Below the pieces are notes generated by a model. It saw only the letters and a program-made list of their open reading frames with translations. It was not told the DNA's origin and did not search any database. Of a DNA stretch of 64,000 nucleotides, positions 13,073-59,463 are shown one piece after another (position 1 is the stretch's first letter; the number at the start of each line of letters is the position of its first letter). The DNA is from Candidatus Poribacteria bacterium (lineage in GTDB: Bacteria > Poribacteria > WGA-4E > GCA-2687025), in NCBI GenBank assembly GCA_963665845.2, contig OY762492.1, positions 3,424,001 through 3,488,000 of the forward strand. Direction: 5' to 3'. The translations under genes and the position numbers were made by a program.

Positions 13073-16000
13073 ATGAAACGATTCATCATAGCAGGGGCGG
13101 TCTTCGCATGGGTCTGTTTAGAGGCATGGGGCGCGGCGCTCCAGATAGACGGGACGGCGCTGCTGCGCAGTCAGCATAGGGACCTGATACCGGCGGCGGA
13201 TTCGGCGCCTCAAGACGCGCCTGTCCGTCAGGTCGGCTCTCAATTGTTGTTTTACGCCTACGATTTTCCGCAGGCGCTCCACTACCAGGTACCGTCAACG
13301 CTGCGCGCCGTCGGCGACCACTGCTATGTGTATGTGGAGGACAGCGAGTGGGACGAGGGGCGCGTGTCGCAGGCGGACGCGGACGCCGCGTTGAGCGCGT
13401 TTGAAAAGCGAACCCCCTCCGACGCGGCGCGCGGCGCGTATCAGATACTCACCGAGGCGTTCGGCTCCCCGCCGGACATTGACGGCGAGCCGCGCATCGT
13501 CTTGCTGCTGCTGGATATACGGGACTGGCATACCGGCCCGGGCAGCGGCTATATTTCAGGTTACTTTTCCTCGCTCAACCAGACGCGGCAGCCGGACAGC
13601 AACGAAACGGAGATGCTGTATATCGACGCAAATCCGCAGGATCTAAGCGATCCCGAATCGTTCGCCAACGCGGCGCATGAATTTCAGCACCTGCTGCATA
13701 CCGCAAGGGACTGGGACGAGGAGCATTGGCTCAACGAAGGCATGTCGGGGCTGGCGGAGGCGCTGTGCGGGTACGACATCTCTTTGCATATCAACGCTTT
13801 TCAGAACGACCCGTCCGGCTCCTTGACCAGCTGGCCGGAGAACGCGGCGCGGCTGGCGGACTACGGGCGGGCGTATCTCTGGACGCTGTATCTGTACGAG
13901 CGTTACGGCGGCATTGCGACGATACAGGAGATTGTGCGCAACCCGAAGAACGGGATGCCGACCGTGGACGCGGCGCTGCGCAATTTGGGCGTTCAGGCAA
14001 CCGCTTCCAACGTGTATCTGGACTGGATCGCGGCGCTGGCGGCGGACGACAGCCGCCATGAAGACGGGCGGTATTCGATACAGATTGCCGATATAAAAGC
14101 GTCGCCGACCCGCGCGCATTTTCAGTACCCGACCGATGAAACGAGCGGCGTACTGCAGGGATGGGAGGCGCAGCACCTTGAGTTTCATCCGCCGGCGGAC
14201 GGGGCGGGCAGCTTGCTCATCGAAATCGACGCGCCGATGGATCTGAAGGCGCGCGCGCTGCTGTTTGACGGCGGGCGCCTGGCTGATGTGCGGAATATCG
14301 ACATGATCAACGGCTTTGGAGAGGCGTACGACCGCGTCGTCGTCGCTCTCGGTTACCATCCGCAGTCTGAACAGGAGTCGGAGACGGTCTCATACGCTTA
14401 TTCGGCGCGCGTCTCAGTAACGGACGAGGATCGCCCGACCGTCACGATCACAGGTCCGACAGCGGTGCAGCGCGGCGCGTTTCAGATCGATATTGCGTTC
14501 AACGAGGATGTGGTCGGTTTTGAACGGAGCGATCTGGCCGTTGTGAACGGTACCGCGGTCGGCTTTTCAGGCGCGCGCGATACGTACCGCGCATCGATCG
14601 ACCCGATCGGCTCCGGAGAGGTTCAGGTGAGCGTCCCTGAAAACGCCGCGCATGATCTTGCCGGAAACGGAAACACAGCCTCCAACGTTTTTTCGGTTGA
14701 GGCGCGTAAAGTCGCTCAACTGCTGATCGTCGCGGGCGTCCTCCAAAACAGCGACGGAACGCCGGCGCCAGGGCTAAAGGTCTCCTTTCAAAACGTTACG
14801 ACGCAGGCTGACGCGGTTTTTGCGCCGGATCCAACCGACGCGCAGGGGCGTTATTCGCTCACGTTGTTCCATCTGAACGGAGTCGTCGAATCGGGTCAAA
14901 CCATCGCCGCCCGCGCCTATGCAGATGTGAACGGAACGCAAACCCTAGTCGGAGAGGTTGAGCGCGTCATAACGGACGCGGATATTGACGCGGCGTCTAT
15001 TCAAGTGAACATACAGGTCAACATTCCGAAGCCGCGCCTTCCCGCCTTTGTATTGAGCGGAGTTGCCGCCGACATGGACGGATCGCCCGCAGAGGGCGTC
15101 ACGGTCGAAGGCGTAAACTCAACGACCGTATCAGACGCATTCACCGCGGGCCCGACAGACGCGTCAGGCGCCTATACGCTCACCTTTTTTGATCCGAACG
15201 GCATTGTCGGCGCCGGCGAAACGTTAACCGTACGCGCCTATGCGGATGTGAACGGGACGAAAACGCTGGTCGGCGAAGCGTCCCATGTCATAACGGAAGA
15301 GGAGATCGACGCGGCGGCTGCCCAGCTGAACATACAGGTCGACATCCCGGCGCCGCGCCCCCCCGCCTTTGTGTTGAGCGGAGTCGTCTCGGATATGGAC
15401 GGCTCGCCCGCGGAGGGCGTCACAATAGAAGGCGAAAACGCATCCACCAAATCGGACGTCTTCGCCGCCAATCCAACAGACGCGGCAGGCGCCTATACGC
15501 TGACATTTTCTGATGAAAACGGCGTTGTCGGCGCCGGCGAAACGTTAACCGTCCGCGCCTACGCGGATGTGAACGGGACGAAAACGCTGGTCGGCGAGGC
15601 GTCCCATGTCGTCACGGAGGAGGAGATCGACGCGGCCGCGGCGCAATTAAACATACAGGTTGACATCCCGGCGCCGCGCCCTCCTTCGTTTGTGTTGAGC
15701 GGCGTTGTGTCGGACATGGACGAATCGCCGGCGGAGGGCGTCATGATGGAAGGCGAAAACGCATCGACCAAATCGGACGTCTTCGCCGCCAGTCCGACAG
15801 ACGCATCGGGCGCCTATACGCTGACCTTATCTGATGAGAACGGCGTTGTCGGCGCCGGCGAAACGTTAACCGTCCGCGCCTATGCGGATGTGAACGGAAC
15901 GAAAACGCTGGTCGGCGAAGCGTCCCATGTCATAACGGAAGAGGAGATCGACGCGGCGGCTGCCCAGCTGAACATACAGGTCGACATCCCGGCGCCGCGC

Positions 16001-18760
16001 CCCCCCGCCTTTGTGTTGAGCGGAGTCGTCTCGAATATGGACGAATCGCCCGCGGAGGGCGTCACGATAGAAGGCGAAAACGCCACGACCAAATCGGATA
16101 CCTTCGCCGCCAATCCGACAGACGCGGCAGGCGCCTATACGCTCACCTTATCGGATGAAAACGGCGTTGTCGGCGCCGGCGAAACGTTAACCGTACGCGC
16201 CTATGCGGATGTGAACGGAACGAAAACGCTGGTCGGCGAAGCGTCCCATGTCATAACGGAAGAGGAGATCGACGCGGCGGCTGCCCAGCTGAACATACAG
16301 GTCGACATCCCAGCGCCACGCCCCCCCGCCTTTGTGTTGAGCGGAATCGTCTCGAATATGGACGAATCGCCCGCGGAGGGCGTCACGGTGGAGGGCATAA
16401 ACGAAACGACCAATTCAGTCACCTTTACTGCAGCCAATCCGACAGACGCATCGGGCAATTATGCGTTGACCTTATCGGATGAAAACGGCGTTGTCGGAGC
16501 CGGCGAAACGTTAGCCGTGCGCGCCTATGCGGATGTGAACGGGACGAAAACGCTGGTCGGCGAAGCGTCCCATGTCGTCACAGAAGAGGAGATCGACGCC
16601 GCGGCTGCAGAACTAAACATACAGGTTGACATTCCAGCGCCGCGCCCTCCCTCGTTTGTGTTGAGCGGCGTTGTGTCGGACATGGACGGATCGCCCGCGG
16701 CGGGCGTCACGGTCGAAGGCGAAAATGAAACGACCAAATCGGACACTTTCGCCGCTAATCCGACAGACGCGGCAGGCGCCTATACGCTCACCCTATCTGA
16801 TGAAAACGGCGTTGTCGGCGCCGGCGAAACGCTCGCTGTACGCGCCTATGCGGATGTGAACGGAACAAAAACGCTGGTCGGCGAAGCGTCGCATGTTGTC
16901 ACGGAAGAGGAGATCGACGCGGCGGCTGCGCAGCTGAACATACAGGTTGATATACCGAAGCCGCCCGCGGACTTTGCATTGAGCGGCGCCGCGTTCACGT
17001 TGGACGGAATTCCCGCGCCGGGCTTTCATATCACAGCGCAAAACGCGACCGCTCAAACGGAGGAGTTTGAAGCGGACGCCCCGACCGACGCGGCGGGAAT
17101 GTATGCCGCCGCGTTGACCGGGACGGCTGTTGAGGCGGGCGACGCCCTGATTGTCCGCGCGTATGAGATCGTTGACGGGGAGCGGACGCTTGCCGCCGAG
17201 CGGACGCATACCGCAACGCAGGCGGAGGCGGAAACGTCCAAGGCGTCGGTCGACCTGACGATCCAGCGGCTGGCGCATGGCGGCGCCGTGTTATCGACCG
17301 CCTTTTCGCCGGACGGGCGCCTGTTTGCGACCGGCGGAGCCGACCGGACGCCCCGAATCTGGCAGGTTCAACCGCGCCGTCTGCTGCTGTCGCTGACGGG
17401 TCATACGGGAAGCGCCGCCGCGGTCGCCTTTTCGCCGGACGGGCAGACGCTTGTCAGCGGATCGTACGACGGCTCCGCGCGGATATGGGATGTCCAAACA
17501 GGCGCGCTTGTCAGAGAGCTGCAGGGGCATACGGATCGGGTGTACGCCGCCGCCTTCTCGCCGGACGGTCAAACGCTCGCGACCGGCTCCGCCGACCGTA
17601 CCATCAAGCTGTGGCGCGCGTCAGACGGAAAACTGATGAAAACGATGACCGCCCATGCCGGCGCCGTCTTGGCGGTCGCCTTCTCGCCGGACGGACAGAC
17701 GATCGCGTCCGGCAGCGCCGACCGTACGCTCAAAGTATGGAGCGGCGGCGGACAGCTGATCTACTCTCAAAAGAGGCATGGGCGCGCTGTACGCTCCGCC
17801 GCCTTTTCGCCGGACGGACAGACGATCGCGACCGGCAGCAGCGATGAAACGATTCGCTTCTGGAACGCCGCGGACGGGCGGCATCTTTTGACCGTCGGAG
17901 GCGGCGGAACGGGGCTTGTCCATTCGGTCGCCTTTTCGCCGGACGGACAGACGCTCGCCAGCGCGCATCATGACGGCAGCGTCTGGCTCTGGGCGGCGGG
18001 GAACGGACGGCGCAAGCGCCTCTTGGAGGGGCATACGGGAACCGTCTACACGCTCGCCTTTTCGCCGGACGGGCAGACGCTGTTGAGCGGATCGCGCGAC
18101 CGAACCTTCCGCTTCTGGCATACGCCGCCGCCACGCGTTGATGTGAACGGCGACGGCGCCGTCGACTTTGCGGACCTGGCGCTCGCCGCCGCGCAATACG
18201 GGCAGACGGAGAACATCACAGCCGATGTGAACGGCGACGGCGTCGTCGACATTCTGGACATCCTGCTCATTGCGGACGCGATCGATCAAGCGGCGGGATG
18301 GCTTGCCGCGCCGCCTGCGCATGCGTCCGCCGCGTTTTCGTCGGCGTATGAAGGCGAGGCGGCGCGCTGGTTTGCGGACGCGGAGCGGCTTGTTGTGAAA
18401 GGGTCGGCGACGCGGCGCGGAGAGGCGGCGCTGCGCAGTTTATGGGCGCATGCGGTCTCGCTGCCGGCGCGTTCATCGCTTCTGCCGAATTATCCGAACC
18501 CGTTCAACCCTGAAACCTGGATTCCGTTTGAGCTGTCGGAGGCATCCCATGTGCGCTTGACGATCTACAGCGCGGACGGGGCGGTCGCGCGGGAGATGGA
18601 TCTGGGAGAGCTGCCTGCAGGCGCATACCGCAGCAAGGCAAAAGCCGCCTACTGGGACGGGCGCAACAACCTCGGAGAACGCGCCGCCAGCGGAACCTAT
18701 TTTGTCCGCATTGAGGCGGGCGGATACACGGCTCTGCGGCGCATGGTTTTGTTGAAATGA
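13073..18760 (+). CDS. Giant secreted protein: zinc metallopeptidase (M30-like), Ig-like domain, ~8 x 107-aa repeats, WD40 propeller, dockerin-like domain, FlgD/T9SS-like C-terminal domain
   Basis: Signal peptide; AHEFQHLLH...WLNEGMS; 321-bp tandem repeats; 7 WD40 units; DVNGDGAVDFADL and [13 protein letters not shown]; [17 protein letters not shown]...RRMVLLK. Confidence 0.88.
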   Translation: MKRFIIAGAVFAWVCLEAWGAALQIDGTALLRSQHRDLIPAADSAPQDAPVRQVGSQLLFYAYDFPQALHYQVPSTLRAVGDHCYVYVEDSEWDEGRVSQADADAALSAFEKRTPSDAARGAYQILTEAFGSPPDIDGEPRIVLLLLDIRDWHTGPGSGYISGYFSSLNQTRQPDSNETEMLYIDANPQDLSDPESFANAAHEFQHLLHTARDWDEEHWLNEGMSGLAEALCGYDISLHINAFQNDPSGSLTSWPENAARLADYGRAYLWTLYLYERYGGIATIQEIVRNPKNGMPTVDAALRNLGVQATASNVYLDWIAALAADDSRHEDGRYSIQIADIKASPTRAHFQYPTDETSGVLQGWEAQHLEFHPPADGAGSLLIEIDAPMDLKARALLFDGGRLADVRNIDMINGFGEAYDRVVVALGYHPQSEQESETVSYAYSARVSVTDEDRPTVTITGPTAVQRGAFQIDIAFNEDVVGFERSDLAVVNGTAVGFSGARDTYRASIDPIGSGEVQVSVPENAAHDLAGNGNTASNVFSVEARKVAQLLIVAGVLQNSDGTPAPGLKVSFQNVTTQADAVFAPDPTDAQGRYSLTLFHLNGVVESGQTIAARAYADVNGTQTLVGEVERVITDADIDAASIQVNIQVNIPKPRLPAFVLSGVAADMDGSPAEGVTVEGVNSTTVSDAFTAGPTDASGAYTLTFFDPNGIVGAGETLTVRAYADVNGTKTLVGEASHVITEEEIDAAAAQLNIQVDIPAPRPPAFVLSGVVSDMDGSPAEGVTIEGENASTKSDVFAANPTDAAGAYTLTFSDENGVVGAGETLTVRAYADVNGTKTLVGEASHVVTEEEIDAAAAQLNIQVDIPAPRPPSFVLSGVVSDMDESPAEGVMMEGENASTKSDVFAASPTDASGAYTLTLSDENGVVGAGETLTVRAYADVNGTKTLVGEASHVITEEEIDAAAAQLNIQVDIPAPRPPAFVLSGVVSNMDESPAEGVTIEGENATTKSDTFAANPTDAAGAYTLTLSDENGVVGAGETLTVRAYADVNGTKTLVGEASHVITEEEIDAAAAQLNIQVDIPAPRPPAFVLSGIVSNMDESPAEGVTVEGINETTNSVTFTAANPTDASGNYALTLSDENGVVGAGETLAVRAYADVNGTKTLVGEASHVVTEEEIDAAAAELNIQVDIPAPRPPSFVLSGVVSDMDGSPAAGVTVEGENETTKSDTFAANPTDAAGAYTLTLSDENGVVGAGETLAVRAYADVNGTKTLVGEASHVVTEEEIDAAAAQLNIQVDIPKPPADFALSGAAFTLDGIPAPGFHITAQNATAQTEEFEADAPTDAAGMYAAALTGTAVEAGDALIVRAYEIVDGERTLAAERTHTATQAEAETSKASVDLTIQRLAHGGAVLSTAFSPDGRLFATGGADRTPRIWQVQPRRLLLSLTGHTGSAAAVAFSPDGQTLVSGSYDGSARIWDVQTGALVRELQGHTDRVYAAAFSPDGQTLATGSADRTIKLWRASDGKLMKTMTAHAGAVLAVAFSPDGQTIASGSADRTLKVWSGGGQLIYSQKRHGRAVRSAAFSPDGQTIATGSSDETIRFWNAADGRHLLTVGGGGTGLVHSVAFSPDGQTLASAHHDGSVWLWAAGNGRRKRLLEGHTGTVYTLAFSPDGQTLLSGSRDRTFRFWHTPPPRVDVNGDGAVDFADLALAAAQYGQTENITADVNGDGVVDILDILLIADAIDQAAGWLAAPPAHASAAFSSAYEGEAARWFADAERLVVKGSATRRGEAALRSLWAHAVSLPARSSLLPNYPNPFNPETWIPFELSEASHVRLTIYSADGAVAREMDLGELPAGAYRSKAKAAYWDGRNNLGERAASGTYFVRIEAGGYTALRRMVLLK
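14715..17270 (+). repeat. Intragenic tandem repeat, ~321-bp unit, about 6 near-identical plus 2 diverged copies
   Basis: FVLSGVVSDMD...RAYADVNGTKTLVGEASHV...LNIQVDIPAPRPP recurs at about 15047, 15368, 15689, 16010, 16331 and 16655. Confidence 0.95.
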
Positions 18761-53400: not shown

Positions 53401-53615
53401 GGCTTCTGCCGATGGCGCTCGGAATCGGCGGCGGCTCGGAGGTGTGGGCGCCGCTGGCGAACACGATCGTATGGGGGCTGTCCGCGGCGACGTTCATGAC
53501 GTTGTTTCTCGTCCCGGCGCTGTATGCGATCGCGGACGACGCGGCGGCGTTTCGGCAGCGTCTTCGGGCGCGCCGCCCCGCGCGGTTAGAGGCGGCGCCC
53601 GCCTCGGCAGATTGA
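50496..53615 (+). CDS. RND efflux permease (AcrB/CzcA-like)
   Basis: YPGAAPIEVEQLVTIPMEE, LGMIVDHAIVIAEN, GIVVNDSIVLID, RLRPVLLTSITT. Confidence 0.95.
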   Translation: MRLARFSVKNVLLINLAMATILLLGAYAFLVLPREASPDINFNWAFVTTAYPGAAPIEVEQLVTIPMEEAIREVADVNMVTSTSSEGISFISVKFAQNMSRGDFDKRFQDLQTNIRAAEVPDGAEDPDIRKLDTQDWWPVVSVAVSGQLPEPVMNQIAEDLIDLYEQNDDVGQLTAVGMREREIWVEVNPDAMNSLDIGFQSVVQALAARNLNVPGGELRPGGRGEFLVRTLGKINAPEEARQVIIRTGPSGRQVRVGDVAEVTDTFEKARMISRMDGEPCITINVAKKRGASTISVVDDVRELTARYEAERLVPGARLEMVNDSSEYIINIIDKLQSNAVFGIVFVTLALWLFIGWRAALAVVVGMPVTFAVTFIFMRATGRSLDGNALFALVLVLGMIVDHAIVIAENCVRHLQMDKSKAQAVIDGVGEVFQPVLAATLTTIAAFLPLMLMPGIMGAFMRIIPLVVTLALVASNFEAFLILPAHVMDWTKRRAQGVRAENRWFRAVRLRYMRLLRRVIHRRYLAVALFLLIAVGSAFLLPLVGVQLFEGDPLSRFYVRVWMPLGTSLETTDETLREIETIAMQLPDTDVAAVISTAGMLLDDEGTRVGDRYGQVLVDVPDGSKESRPIPEILADMRMRCSRLTGYEKIRFTMDEGGPPTGKPVEVKVKGPDLDRLQELVTELKGELASMPGVYDIGDDFSPGKEELRIKVNDERARMHGLDAAQIAMFVRTAVNGTTATSIRDGNDDVDVIVKVKGGAESPLERIKSLRIAAPGGGSLPLREAATFETGRGYSDILRFEYERSITVFAEVDSTIASAVAVNREMESRFANLGKRYPGYRLDFRGEFAEFRDAFNSLASLFALGVFIIFLLLTAQFKSLIQPFIILFTIPFAFVGAVVGLIAIRAPFSIMTLYGIVALAGIVVNDSIVLIDFINKRRQNGAGRWRAVMKGGALRLRPVLLTSITTIAGLLPMALGIGGGSEVWAPLANTIVWGLSAATFMTLFLVPALYAIADDAAAFRQRLRARRPARLEAAPASAD

Positions 53616-53634
53616 CATCGTCAAGCCTCGCGTT

Positions 53635-53876
53635 CTGACCTCTGAATGATCGCTCTATTCATGGGAAAAAGACCCCGCTAACCAAACCGTCCCCCGCTTC
53701 CGCGAGGACATGCATTCCCGCGCAAGCGGGAATCCAGAGTGCCGACAGAAACCGTCCGCGTTTACCCCAAGCGTCCATCTTACACGCCGTCATTCCCGCG
53801 CAAGCGGGAATCTTAGGCGTCGCAGACGCCGTCCATATCGCGTCTCCGATCAACATCATCGTATGAGCGTACTGCC
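53635..53876. mobile_element. MITE-like composite repeat with two ATTCCC-N8-GGGAAT hairpins
   Basis: Starts ctgacc; 53645-53690 approximates the inverse of 48130-48170; ends catcgtatgagcgtactgcc (near-inverse of 30745-30764). Confidence 0.75.
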
Positions 53877-54035
53877 GCCCAGCCGTTTTGGATGCATACC
53901 CTCCCCCGCATGTGTTATACTCTAATGCAATCGTTCCGGCTGATGCCGGCGTTACACAGGTTTGCGCACAGGCAACTCGAAAGGAGCGCCGCATAGATGA
54001 GGTTCCACAGATTCAACATCAGGAGTGTCGCGCAC

Positions 54036-57000
54036 ATGAAACTCACACGTGACGTACCCCCCCCCCCCCCCCCCCCCCCCCCGCGCTTGGTCCGCTGCTC
54101 TAGCGGCGGCGCTTCTCTGCGCATGGCTCGTTGCTGAAAACAGCAGCGCGCAACAGGTCCTGACAGGGCATACGGATGATGTCAGGTCCGTGGCGTATTC
54201 GCCGGACGGTCAGACGATCGCCAGCGGCAGCGCCGACGGCACAATCCGCATCTGGAATCCAGCGACGGGCGCGCATGTCCGAACGCTGGAAGAAAACGAA
54301 ACCAGAGTTTTCGCTGTGGGCTATTCGCCGGACGGTCAGACGATCGCCAGCGGAAACTTCTACAACACGATAAGCGTCTGGAACGCTCAAACAGGCGCGC
54401 ATCTCAAAACCCTGGAAGAGCGCGTGAACGGCGCGAGCGTCTGTAGAGTAGGCGACGTCCTACAGCCCGGAGACAGCTGCTATTATCCGGGAACTGACAT
54501 TGTGATTCGCGCTGAGGGCGGAAGCCTTATCATTGGAGGCGCATCCTTCTCTGGGGCAACCATAAATCTCCAGGGCGTTACCATCGGCGGCGTACGCATC
54601 TCCATTACTGCCGTACGCGACGGAAATTCTTATAGAATTTCCGGAATTGCGAGCGCGTCCGCTGTCTACTCGGTGTCGTATTCGCCAGACGGAACGCGAA
54701 TTGTCAGCGGCGGCGGCGGCGGCAGCGGCGACGACACGATTCGGATCTGGAACGCCGAGACGGGCGAACTCATACGAACGCTTGAAGGGCATACGGGTAT
54801 TGTCTGGTCTGTGGCGTATTCACCGGACGGTCAGATGATCGCCAGCGGCAGCTGGGACGACATGATTCGGATCTGGAACGCCAACACGGGCGAACTCATA
54901 CGAACGCTTGAAGGGCATACAGATAATGTCTATTCTGTGATGTATTCACCGGACGGTCAGACGATCGCCAGCGGCAGCGCCGACGACACGATTCGGATCT
55001 GGAACGCCAACACGGGAGCGCACATACGAACCCTCCAAGGACATACGAATACAGTCCTTTCTGTCCTTTCTGTGGCATATTCGCCGGATGGTCAAACGAT
55101 CGCCAGCGGCAGCGCCGACGACACGATTCGGATCTGGAACGCCAACACGGGAGCGCATCTACGAACCCTCCAGGGACATACGGATGTAGTCCTGTCCGTG
55201 GCCTATTCACCGGACGGTCAGACGATCGCCAGCGGCAGCTGGGACGACACGATCCGCCTCTGGGACATCAGCGACCTCGCCGCTCCTGTAGACCGCCCAA
55301 CGGCGACCGTCTCCGGCCCGAGTGAGACGCAAACAGGCGCGTTCGATGTGACCATCGAGTTCAGCTCCGCCGTCACAGGTTTCGAGTCGTCCGACATTGT
55401 TGTGACGAACGGCTCTGTGACCAATCTTGCCGGCAGCGGCGCATCCTACACGGCAACGATTCAACCGTCCAGCACAGGAGCCGTTACGGTGAGCGTCCCC
55501 GCCAACGCCGCGGGGAACAACACCGCTTCCAACACCTACTCTGTCAACGCTGAAACCGGAGGGCCGCAGGTCCTGACAGGGCATACGGATGATGTCTTTT
55601 CTGTGGCGTATTCTCCGGACGGTCAAACGATCGCCAGCGGCAGCAGGGACGACACGATCCGCATCTGGAACGCCAACACGGGAGCGCACATACGAACCCT
55701 CCAAGGACATACGAATATAGTCCTTTCTGTGGCATATTCGCCGGATGGTCAAACGATCGCCAGCGGCAGCGTCGACGCCACGATTCGGATCTGGAACGCC
55801 AACACGGGAGCGCATCTACGAACCCTCCAGGGACATACGCGTGTAGTCACATCCGTGGCCTATTCACCGAACGGTCAGACGCTTGCCAGCGGCGGCTTCG
55901 ACAACACGGTTCGGATTTGGAACGCCAACACGGGAGCGCATCTACGAACCCTCCAGGGACATACGGATCAGGTATGGTCCGTGGCATATTCACCGGACAG
56001 TCAGATGATCGCCAGCGGCAGCGCCGACGCCACGATTCGGATCTGGAACGCCAACACGGGCGAACTCATACGAACGCTTGAAGGGCATACAGATTATGTC
56101 TATTCTGTGATGTATTCACCGGACGGTCAGACGATCGCCAGCGGCAGCGTCGACGCCACGATTCGGATCTGGAACGCCAACACGGGAGCGCACATACGAA
56201 CCCTCCAAGGACATACGAATACAGTCCTTTCTGTGGCATATTCGCCGGATGGTCAAACGATCGCCAGCGGCAGCTGGGACGACATGATTCGGATCTGGAA
56301 CGCCAACACGGGAGCGCATCTACGAACCCTCCAGGGACATACGGATGGAGTCCTTTCTGTGGCGTATTCGCCGGATGGTCAGACGATCGCCAGCGGCAGT
56401 TACGACGATACGATACGCATCTGGGACATCAGCGACCTCGCCGCTCCTGTAGACGGCCCAACGGCGACCGTCTCCGGCCCGAGCGAGACGCAGACAGGCG
56501 CGTTCGATGTGACCATCGAGTTCAGCTCCGCCGTCACAGGTTTCGAGTCGTCCGACATCGCTGTGACGAACGGCTCTGTGACCAATCTTGCCGGCAGCGG
56601 CGCAAGCTACACGGCGACGATTCAGCCGTCCAGCTTCGGAGCCTTTACCGTTACGGTGAGCGTTCCCGCCAACGCCGCGGGCAACAGAGCCTCCAACACC
56701 TACACGGTCAACGTTGAAATCGGAGCGCTGCGGGTCCTGACAGGACATACGGACCCGGTCTGGTCTGTGGCGTATTCGCCGGACGGTCAGACGATCGCCA
56801 GCGGAAGCTCGGACGACACGATACGCATCTGGAACGCCAACACAGGGGAGCCTCTCAGAACCCTCCAGGGACATACGAGTACTGTCAGGTCTGTGGCGTA
56901 TTCACCGGACGGTCAGTCGCTCGCCAGCGGCAGCTACGACAACACGATACGCATCTGGAACGCCAACACTGGCGCGCATCTACGAACCCTCCAGGGACAT

Positions 57001-59385
57001 ACGAATTGGGTCAGGTCTGTGGCATATTCTCCGGACGGTCTGACGATCGCCAGCGGCAGCAACGACAACACGGTTCGGATCTGGAACGCCAACACTGGCG
57101 CGCATCTACGAACCCTCCAGGGACATACGGGTCAGGTCTGGTCCGTGGCGTATTCACCGGATGGTCAGACGATCGCCAGCGGCAGCGGCAGCGTCGACAA
57201 CACGATACGCATCTGGGACGCGAACACGGGAGAGCATCTCCGAACCCTCCGAGGGCAGTCTTGGGTCACCTCTGTGGCATATTCGCCGGACGGTCAGACG
57301 CTCGCCAGCGGCAGCAGAGACCAAGCAAATCCAATTCGGGTCTGGGACGCGAACACGGGAGCGCATCTACGAACCCTCCATGGACATACGAATCCAATCC
57401 TTTCTGTAGCGTATTCACCTGACGGTCAGACGATCGCCAGCGGCAGCGGCGACGACACAATCCGCATCTGGAACGCCAACACAGGGGCGCATCTACGAAC
57501 CCTCCAGGGACATACGGGTACGGTATGGTCCGTGGCGTATTCGCCGGATGGTCAGACGATCGCCAGCGGCAGCTGGGATGAGACGATTCGGATCTGGGAC
57601 ATCAGCGACCTCGCCGCTCCTGTAGACCGCCCAACGGCGACCGTCTCCGGCCCGAGTGAGACGCAGACAGGCGCGTTCGATGTGACCATCGAGTTCAGCT
57701 CCGCCGTCACAGGTTTCGAGTCGTCCGACATTATTGTGACGAACGGCTCTGTGACCAATCTTGCCGGCAGCGGCGCAAGCTACACGGCAACGATTCAACC
57801 GACAGGCGATGGCGCTGTTACGGTGAGCGTCCCCGCCAACGCCGCGGGCAACAACACCGCCTCTGACGCCTACTCTGTCAACTACGAACCGCCTTTGTTT
57901 GCGCATACGGGCGGCATTTTAGCGGCGGCGTATTCATCTGACGGAACCCGCATCGCCACCGCCTCCGCGGACGATACGGCGCTCATCTGGGATGCCGACG
58001 CGGAAACGCCGCTCCTTGAACTGACGGAGCATACGGTTGATGTCCGCTCCGCCGCCTTTTCGCCGGACGGAACCATGCTCGCCACCGGCAGCGCCGACGA
58101 CACGATACGCCTCTGGAACGCTGAAACGGGCGCGCATATTCGAACGCTGGCGGGACACACGGGCGACGTCTATGCGCTAGACTATTCGCCGGACGGCGCG
58201 ACCATCGTCAGCGCAAGCGGCGACCGTACAGTTCGGCTCTGGAACGCCGAAACCGGGGAGCTTGTCAAGACGATGACGCAGCATGCGGGGGTTGTTCGGA
58301 CAGCCGTCTTCTCTCCTGACGGAACGCTCATCGCCAGCGGCGGCGCCGACCGTACCGTGCGCCTCTGGAACGCGCAAACCGGCAAGCTTCTCTCCACGCT
58401 GAAAGAGCATGGGCGGACGATCTACTCGGTCGCCTTTTCACCCGACGGAACGGTTTTGGCAAGCGGCAGCGCCGACAAAACGATTCGTTTTTGGGATGTT
58501 TCGTCGCAGTCGCTTCTCCATACCCGTACGGTGGGCGGGTCTGCGGGTCTCGTGTTTTCGGTCGCCTTTTCGCCGGACGGTTCCACGCTCGCTTCCGGGA
58601 ACGAGGATGGGACCGTCCATCTCTGGGCGTCCGGAAACGGCCGGCATAAAGAGACGCTAGAGGGACATACGGGAACCGTTTACGCGGTCGCCTATTCGCC
58701 CGACGGTCAAACGCTCATCAGCGGAAGCCGCGACAAGACGCTGCGCTTCTGGTCAATGCCGAAGCCCAATCTCGATCTGAACGGCGACGGCGTCGTGGAC
58801 GCGGCGGATCTGCAGATGGTCGCCAACAGCTACGGCGGCTCCGATCCGAACGCGGATGTGAACGGGGACGGCGTCGTGGATGTGAACGACGTTCTGCTGA
58901 TCGCGGACGCCCTGGCGAACGCGCAGGCGGTCGCGGCGGCTCCGGCGTTGGCGTCGTTGCGGGAGGCGCCGTCCTTTCCGCAGGTGTCCAGCTGGCTGAA
59001 CGACGCGAATGGGCTGATTGTCCGCAGCGATTCGGCAAAGCGGGGCATCGCCGTTTTGGAGGAGATGCTTCGGTCATCGCTGCCGGTTGTGTCCACCAGC
59101 GCGCTTCTGCCGAACTACCCGAACCCGTTCAACCCAGAGACCTGGATCCCGTTTGAGTTGGCGGAAACGTCCCGCGTAAAGTTGACGATCTACAACTCAT
59201 CGGGTCAAACCGTGCGCGTGTTGGAGCTTGGGCAGTTGCCGGCGGGCGCCTACCGCAGCCGCGCCAAAGCCGCCCATTGGGACGGACGGAACAATCTGGG
59301 CGAACCTGTCGCCAGCGGCATGTATTATGTCCGCATTGAGGCGGGGTCGTTCACGGCGCTGCGGCGCATGGTTGTGCTGAAGTAA
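54036..59385 (+). CDS. Giant secreted WD40 protein: 3 x (7-blade propeller + Ig-like), fourth propeller, dockerin-like and FlgD/T9SS-like C-terminal domain; RBS-supported ATG 54036 is out of frame at a poly-C tract (in-frame GTG at 54049)
   Basis: About 28 WD40 units [25 protein letters not shown]; three [19 protein letters not shown] Ig-like units; DLNGDGVVD; [17 protein letters not shown]. Confidence 0.9.
54057..54082 (+). repeat. C26 homopolymer in the signal-peptide coding region
   Basis: 26 consecutive C. Confidence 0.95.
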
Positions 59386-59463
59386 GGCATTTCTGTTTGC
59401 GCGGGAGCGCGTTGCCGTTCCCGCGCAAATTTTCCGCGTTCTCATGCCGACATGTCAAGCGCG

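Follow-up and report, generated by a model that had tools for sequence, protein, structure and literature searches.

In slipped-strand mispairing, single-base slips shift a gene among three reading frames. Such a mechanism has been described close to the 5′ end of a secreted-protein gene in Gardnerella, where the nanH3 sialidase carries a poly-C of 8-14 C just after the signal peptide, with length variation shown by cloning (bioRxiv 10.1101/2020.09.16.300947). The SSR contingency loci of host-adapted bacteria have been reviewed (PMC11868660), N-terminal repeat enrichment has been presented as a signature of phase variation at termini that also simply tolerate indels (PMC3315296), and a meningococcal model covers tracts of G5-G13 (PMC4085013). 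Phase-variable methyltransferases of type I and III R-M systems form the phasevarions (PMC5909438, PMC7383803). Our literature search, which left most subscription journals outside its reach, returned no paper on phase variation or repeat tracts in Poribacteria.

The locus compared here with these systems lies in a 64,000-nucleotide stretch of Candidatus Poribacteria DNA, the whole of which is called the window. Direct reading of the forward strand gave a homopolymer of exactly 26 C at 54057-54082, beginning 21 bases after an ATG (54036) that is preceded by AGGAG (54021-54025, the start unit as a whole spanning 54021-54038). With 26 C, the frame opened by this ATG comprises 33 codons and closes at a TGA (54135-54137), whereas a long frame at 54049-59385 (forward strand) is offset from it by one base, so that 25 or 28 C would restore the reading. 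The first-pass annotation had interpreted this arrangement as a phase-variation switch, apparently in its OFF state; the motif, the start, the tract and the stop that it described were all recovered, and its frame arithmetic held. An upstream AGGAG (53982) with ATG 53997 (53982-53999, forward strand) offers an alternative start in the same frame as ATG 54036, and both SD-linked starts are thus out of frame with the long frame. Reading of the translation revealed no other lesion in its 1778 codons, and a change of tract length alone toggles between the stub and an intact full-length frame. The long frame is itself opened by a GTG (54049), rightly described earlier as far from the ribosome-binding site: the nearest AGGAG ends 23 bases upstream of it.

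The same annotation had singled out the tract as the longest homopolymer in the window. This proved correct (the next longest run is 8) and extends to the whole genome (3.98 Mb in three contigs), where the next longest run is 12. The C/G runs of the genome number 207 of length 7, seven of 8, one of 10, two of 12 and the single one of 26, while geometric extrapolation from short runs predicts between 1e-6 and 1e-14 runs of at least 26. A simple repeat far beyond chance length is therefore found within a 5′ coding region. The promoter and 5′ leader block before it (53877-54056, forward strand) yielded no sigma-70 consensus site in a simple scan, nor did a scan of 53600-54200 yield a terminator-like site.

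This block is common to a paralog on the minus strand of contig C1 (C1:1202434-1202255), with 96.7% identity over 180 bases of promoter and leader and 91% over the next 87. The paralog (C1:1202434-1195100, minus) keeps the upstream AGGAG, has AAGAG in place of the AGGAG before ATG 54036, and encodes a 2355-aa product with a normal leader. At the tract position it carries five C in frame, and it is read in frame from the ATGs and not from a start at GTG 54049; the window copy has 22 extra bases there. Since the five-C paralog is in frame, the tract lies inside the codons for the n-region of the predicted signal peptide, and the alignment indicates that it grew from the five-C run that the paralog has retained. 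The hydrophobic h-region and predicted cleavage site follow in the long frame at 54085-54150 (forward strand, residues 13-34) and are near-identical in the paralog; here and below, signal peptides were judged by eye or by hydrophobicity.

In the sister species G001, 47 bases stand in place of a 5.84-kb block, window positions 53618 and 59459 corresponding to 2315 and 2363 of locus L192. As the block is absent from G001, the gene represents a lineage-specific gain or loss. The whole insert (53619-59458) contains REP-like repeats, the promoter and the WD40 gene, between an acrB-like gene and metallo-beta-lactamase/cupin genes (Pfam names); the neighbouring AcrB-like protein is 94% identical to a Candidatus Poribacteria protein. 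The repeats, at 53648-53876, are palindromic, intergenic and multi-copy, with many copies of 85-94% identity across C1, and REP-like is used for them as a descriptive label. Searches for further relatives of the gene gave little: exact database look-up of the window protein and of its paralog returned no match, an exact leader pattern found no ortholog among metagenome contigs, and a DNA search of eight family genomes with the leader returned only the paralog already described and a weak 48-base match in G001. A protein search with residues 1-210 retrieved mostly WD40 proteins, with the unique insert in none of the 120 matches listed. The earlier expectation that poly-C tracts would recur in paralogous CTD genes was not borne out, as none of the other 52 CTD matches in this genome has a run longer than 7 near its 5′ end.

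Analysis of the 1778-aa product revealed 27 WD40 repeats (Pfam search), three Ig-like Big_12 repeats (three copies by motif, one tested by Pfam), a dockerin-like pair and a FlgD-Ig/T9SS-type C-terminal domain. The latter, at 59116-59376 (forward strand), matches the T9SS type A sorting model TIGR04183 with 33.8 bits against a cut-off of 23. A leader, judged by eye, combined with a C-terminal sorting domain is the make-up of T9SS type A cargo; the product is predicted to be secreted and may reach the surface. Kamke et al. (2014, PMC3909097) reported WD40 proteins with a Por-secretion-like C-terminal domain as frequent in Poribacteria and did not find secretion genes there. The window gene resembles them in its WD40 repeats and TIGR04183-like tail, and differs in its repeat tract and proposed switching, which the available part of that paper does not mention. 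SprA was the sole T9SS component searched for, and a 2225-aa SprA-like frame was found (C1:937278-941039, minus strand; E 4e-22, 76.8 bits, below the cut-off of 200), possibly a divergent T9SS-type translocon in a phylum reported without one.

Two further observations concern the giant proteins of the window. An 80-aa non-WD40 insert (54410-54660) lies within the first propeller of the gene; neither the genome nor 140 retrieved proteins contained a second copy, and NCBIfam gave no match. A second giant CTD protein of 1895 aa (13073-18760) has no long tract; it comprises a WD40 block, a dockerin-like pair, about seven internal repeats that are nearly identical, and an HExxH stretch resembling that of peptidases.

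The tract was also sought in the contigs of four public runs that contained more than half of the words; they come from three samples of a single study that gives no library type. Runs X5-X11 (word share of 0.21 or less) and the RNA runs (word share of only 0.05-0.06) were left out. The tract ends of window-type contigs were read by alignment onto the paralog. In X1, the upstream contig ends in 26 C followed by four bases and the downstream contig begins with 26 C; the assembly agrees with X1 and may derive from it. The downstream contig of X3 begins with 27 C, giving a length of at least 27, and the upstream contig of X2 stops after 21 C. Both flanks are covered in X4, where none of the contigs listed reaches the tract. 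X2 and X3 derive from one sample (S2), which represents another strain, because an X2 base differs from the assembly at 53958. These contigs indicate that the tract is long in two strains, with lengths of 26 (X1), at least 27 (X3) and a break after 21 (X2) that come from contigs only and may include read error. Homopolymer read errors or two-colour poly-G tails could yield the 27-C contig.

As a control, all 47 C/G runs of 7 with a confident coding context were in frame and none was shifted, while another 158 could not be classified; homopolymers are therefore no general source of noise in this assembly. A pure assembly artefact was ruled out by the long tract in contigs of two samples together with these clean shorter runs. 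The exact tract length, and hence the predicted OFF state, holds for the assembly only. The earlier OFF call applies to the assembly, with 26 C out of frame; contigs of X1 give 26 C as well, those of X3 at least 27.

We consider it likely that C26 is a slipped-strand translational phase-variation switch. Replication slippage would add or remove cytosines in the tract, and only one length in three would bring an SD-linked start into frame with the predicted signal peptide and the rest of the 1778-aa WD40 protein. A single clone would then hold cells displaying the protein alongside cells making the 33-codon stub only. A point against this reading is that about eight prolines would stand in the n-region of the ON form, whose export is a prediction. 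Slippage in living cells, its reversibility, protein export and selection for variability are steps that we infer. Given that well-studied switches are about half as long, the population would more likely be a lasting mixture of frames than a stable OFF clone. The locus has the sequence features of an SSR contingency locus and is probably functional. The contingency locus suggested by the first-pass annotation gains from the in-frame C5 paralog, the long tract in a second strain and repeats in leaders and R-M genes elsewhere, and loses from the lack of tracts in the other CTD genes.

Other repeats in this genome occupy comparable positions. C12 at C1:3713297-3713308 (L137, minus strand) puts the methylase part of an Eco57I-type R-M gene out of frame with the 352-aa frame that follows it, which makes this gene a candidate phase-variable R-M system. 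G8 at C1:239943-239950 shifts a lipoprotein leader and (CA)6 at C1:71563-71574 a secreted-protein leader, each out of frame as assembled; the latter is the only (CA) repeat of at least five units in the genome, and the matching site in G001 is C9. None of the four frame-type candidates of this genome is in frame, which counts against the switch. G10 at C1:736981-736990 falls at the ribosome-binding position of a predicted-secreted protein, and its matching G001 site (L140, L141) has a run of at least 24 at a contig end; the adjoining G001 contig starts with an unexplained C48. The second C12 (C1:2498664) lies in a repeated palindrome and was dropped as a switch. The MutS (900 aa) and MutL (599 aa) frames are open and intact, with activity presumed from sequence, which argues for a local effect and not a genome-wide mutator.

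Some repeats and homologs stand apart from this set. A dispersed family with a T9/A9 run occurs at about 25 places in C1 (for example 278960, 301418 and 1801452), accounts for most A/T runs of 9, and has some copies in triplets about 1.18 kb apart. At C1:395695, 1800075, 2985752 and 3121988, homologs of the G001 leader families described below stop early or have no start; they have no long tracts and may be in decay.

In G001, all 26 listed C/G runs of at least 8 were read, runs at the first base of a contig being missed. Seventeen of the 26, of lengths 8-13, lie in leader-coding regions with full context, and one further run, at a contig end, precedes the same leader. A rough calculation with 1000 leaders of 100 bases each puts the number of the 26 runs expected in leaders by chance at about 0.4. 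From their SD-linked starts, 5 of the 17 tracts are in frame, 10 are out of frame and 2 are start-dependent; in two leaders, an in-frame ATG precedes the tract by five bases. After most tracts the frame is long and open; after two of the 17 it is short (80-83 aa). The share of 5 in 17 in frame is also what free slippage without selection would give. The 17 leaders belong to three or four related families and so do not represent 17 independent origins. Their homologs in the present genome have runs of 3-6. Within one family, P0010 and P0013 are identical at 234 of 244 residues after the run and differ by one proline within it. In this genome and G001, repeats occupy the same kind of position, with mixed frames, in several unrelated leader families.

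The G001 leader families themselves (L134, L145, L150, L155, L160, L165, L169, L172-L176, L180, L182, L183, L185 and L186) are predicted-secreted proteins of 250-500+ aa, each with C8-C13 in its leader codons and with mixed frames. The 13 proteins searched belong to no Pfam family, one of them giving a weak match under cut-off, and a metagenome scan with the leader family gave 0 matches. One family has 18 database relatives, none functionally named.

The survey was extended to the class, in which 60 of 151 genomes have a C/G run of at least 13. Many complete genomes lack such a run (11 of the 15 genomes with 1-4 contigs), so the trait is patchy. About a third of the first 30 loci (some ten) were discarded as prone to artefact, since they lay beside N or at a contig end. 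A further 64 tracts were read, namely all 26 of at least 11 from five chosen genomes and 38 others chosen on long contigs within the first 150 of the 181 matches listed. On the C strand of these 64, a gene start was found at most 800 bases downstream in 50 and a hydrophobic N-terminus in 38; on the G strand, the same search gave 16 and 2. Ten frames that carry or adjoin a tract and were selected as R-M-like matched, without exception, R-M or methylase families. Tracts are thus enriched at predicted surface/secreted genes, with leaders judged by hydrophobicity, or at R-M genes.

Conserved poly-C cassettes with C on the sense strand were noted in genomes of families f8 and f6 (L072-L103, L106-L130), mostly 180-650 bases upstream of secreted-protein genes, and one genome (G035) has 15 tracts of 13-31 C. 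Of 25 cassettes tested, 22 have a short frame that starts at an ATG 115-129 bases upstream and reads through the tract; a check for terminators, made by motif, gave a T-rich motif in 15 of the 25. The window tract differs from this module of other Poribacteria: it has no separate leader ORF or terminator, and the paralog shows a direct fusion to the signal peptide. Five copies of an IS1595-methylase element occur in G141 (L104, L105, L109, L110 and L111) with 12, 13, 13, 14 and 16 G; in the 12-G copy, the transposase is joined in frame to the DNA methylase as a fused 789-aa frame.

Tentatively, and with somewhat less than even confidence, we propose that C26 is an extreme member of a phylum-wide, repeat-based contingency system that randomises which secreted or eukaryote-like proteins each cell displays. 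Such a system would act by three routes, namely signal-peptide frameshift, poly-C leader ORFs placed before genes and switchable methylases, and would have evolved repeatedly in unrelated leader families. Through C26, each clone would remain a mixture of states, a form of surface variation reminiscent of pathogens in a benign symbiont whose sponge habitat is inferred from its taxon only, Poribacteria being known from marine sponges.

Some of these observations could also be explained by neutral run-away expansion through biased slippage in a recently inserted, redundant WD40 paralog, leaving a disabled gene with an unstable, unselected tract. The absence of the gene from G001, the abundance of paralogs (53 CTD matches in the genome), a length far above that of usual switches and frame ratios in G001 that fit chance are all compatible with this explanation, as is the tolerance of leader n-regions to indels (PMC3315296). 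Against it stand the 5.3-kb downstream frame without other lesion and a second strain in which the tract is also long. Leaders and R-M genes are moreover where long repeats cluster in these genomes, and at the counterpart of the C9 of G001 the repeat is of another unit, (CA)6. Considering both sets of observations, we regard neutral expansion as unlikely.

The remaining explanations concern the state of the gene at 26 C. If the length were mis-called and the population mostly in frame with 25 or 28 C, the gene would simply be on with a polyproline leader. Long homopolymers are unstable, and an in-frame C25-28 could hardly stay fixed; contigs of X1 give 26 from both sides, as in the assembly, and no shorter C/G run classified in coding regions is shifted. 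Even though long homopolymers are error-prone, sample S2 with at least 27 C is compatible with 28, and the EF-P gene is present in the genome, we hold a mis-called length to be very unlikely. Translation from GTG 54049, by which the gene would be expressed at 26 C and the tract would only alter the start used, would account for the GTG opening the 1778-aa frame and recalls the two G001 leaders with an in-frame ATG five bases before the tract. This start is nevertheless very unlikely: the 23 bases to AGGAG are too far for a normal SD, the in-frame reading of the paralog begins at ATGs and not at this GTG, the n-region would lose a lysine and one arginine, and the GTG itself falls out of frame once the tract slips. 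The slipped-strand switch thus remains our preferred reading of C26.

Eukaryote-like repeat proteins are a leading candidate for the means by which sponge symbionts interact with their host, and their function is still presumed because the bacteria are uncultured. If C26 is a switch, metagenomes from different hosts, tissues, larvae and conditions of phage exposure would give the share of in-frame alleles, a natural experiment in which allele shares would show when the protein is favoured; phase variation would also be extended to an uncultured phylum. A practical artefact would be explained at the same time, since such genes are mis-called without signal peptides and assemblies break there.

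Both features recall Gardnerella nanH3, whose signal peptide is missed by gene callers and whose tract breaks assemblies. Both loci have a poly-C near the 5′ end of a secreted-protein gene, with one length in three giving the full-length product. In nanH3, however, the tract follows the signal peptide and its variation was cloned, whereas the window tract, 26 long, is placed inside the n-region and is known from assembly and contigs only. With the phasevarions, this genome and its relatives share C/G tracts in or at methylase and R-M genes; the resemblance is one of gene sequence and concerns other loci of the repertoire than the window gene. Compared with SSR contingency loci, the window locus has the same kind of localised, presumably hypermutable repeat near the N-terminus of a predicted surface-protein gene, the same intact mismatch-repair genes and several loci per genome. 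It differs in a tract twice the lengths modelled in PMC4085013, in an uncultured phylum outside the usual mucosal pathogens and in a eukaryote-like WD40 target. The mechanism is thus a textbook one, while the phylum and the kind of target are new.
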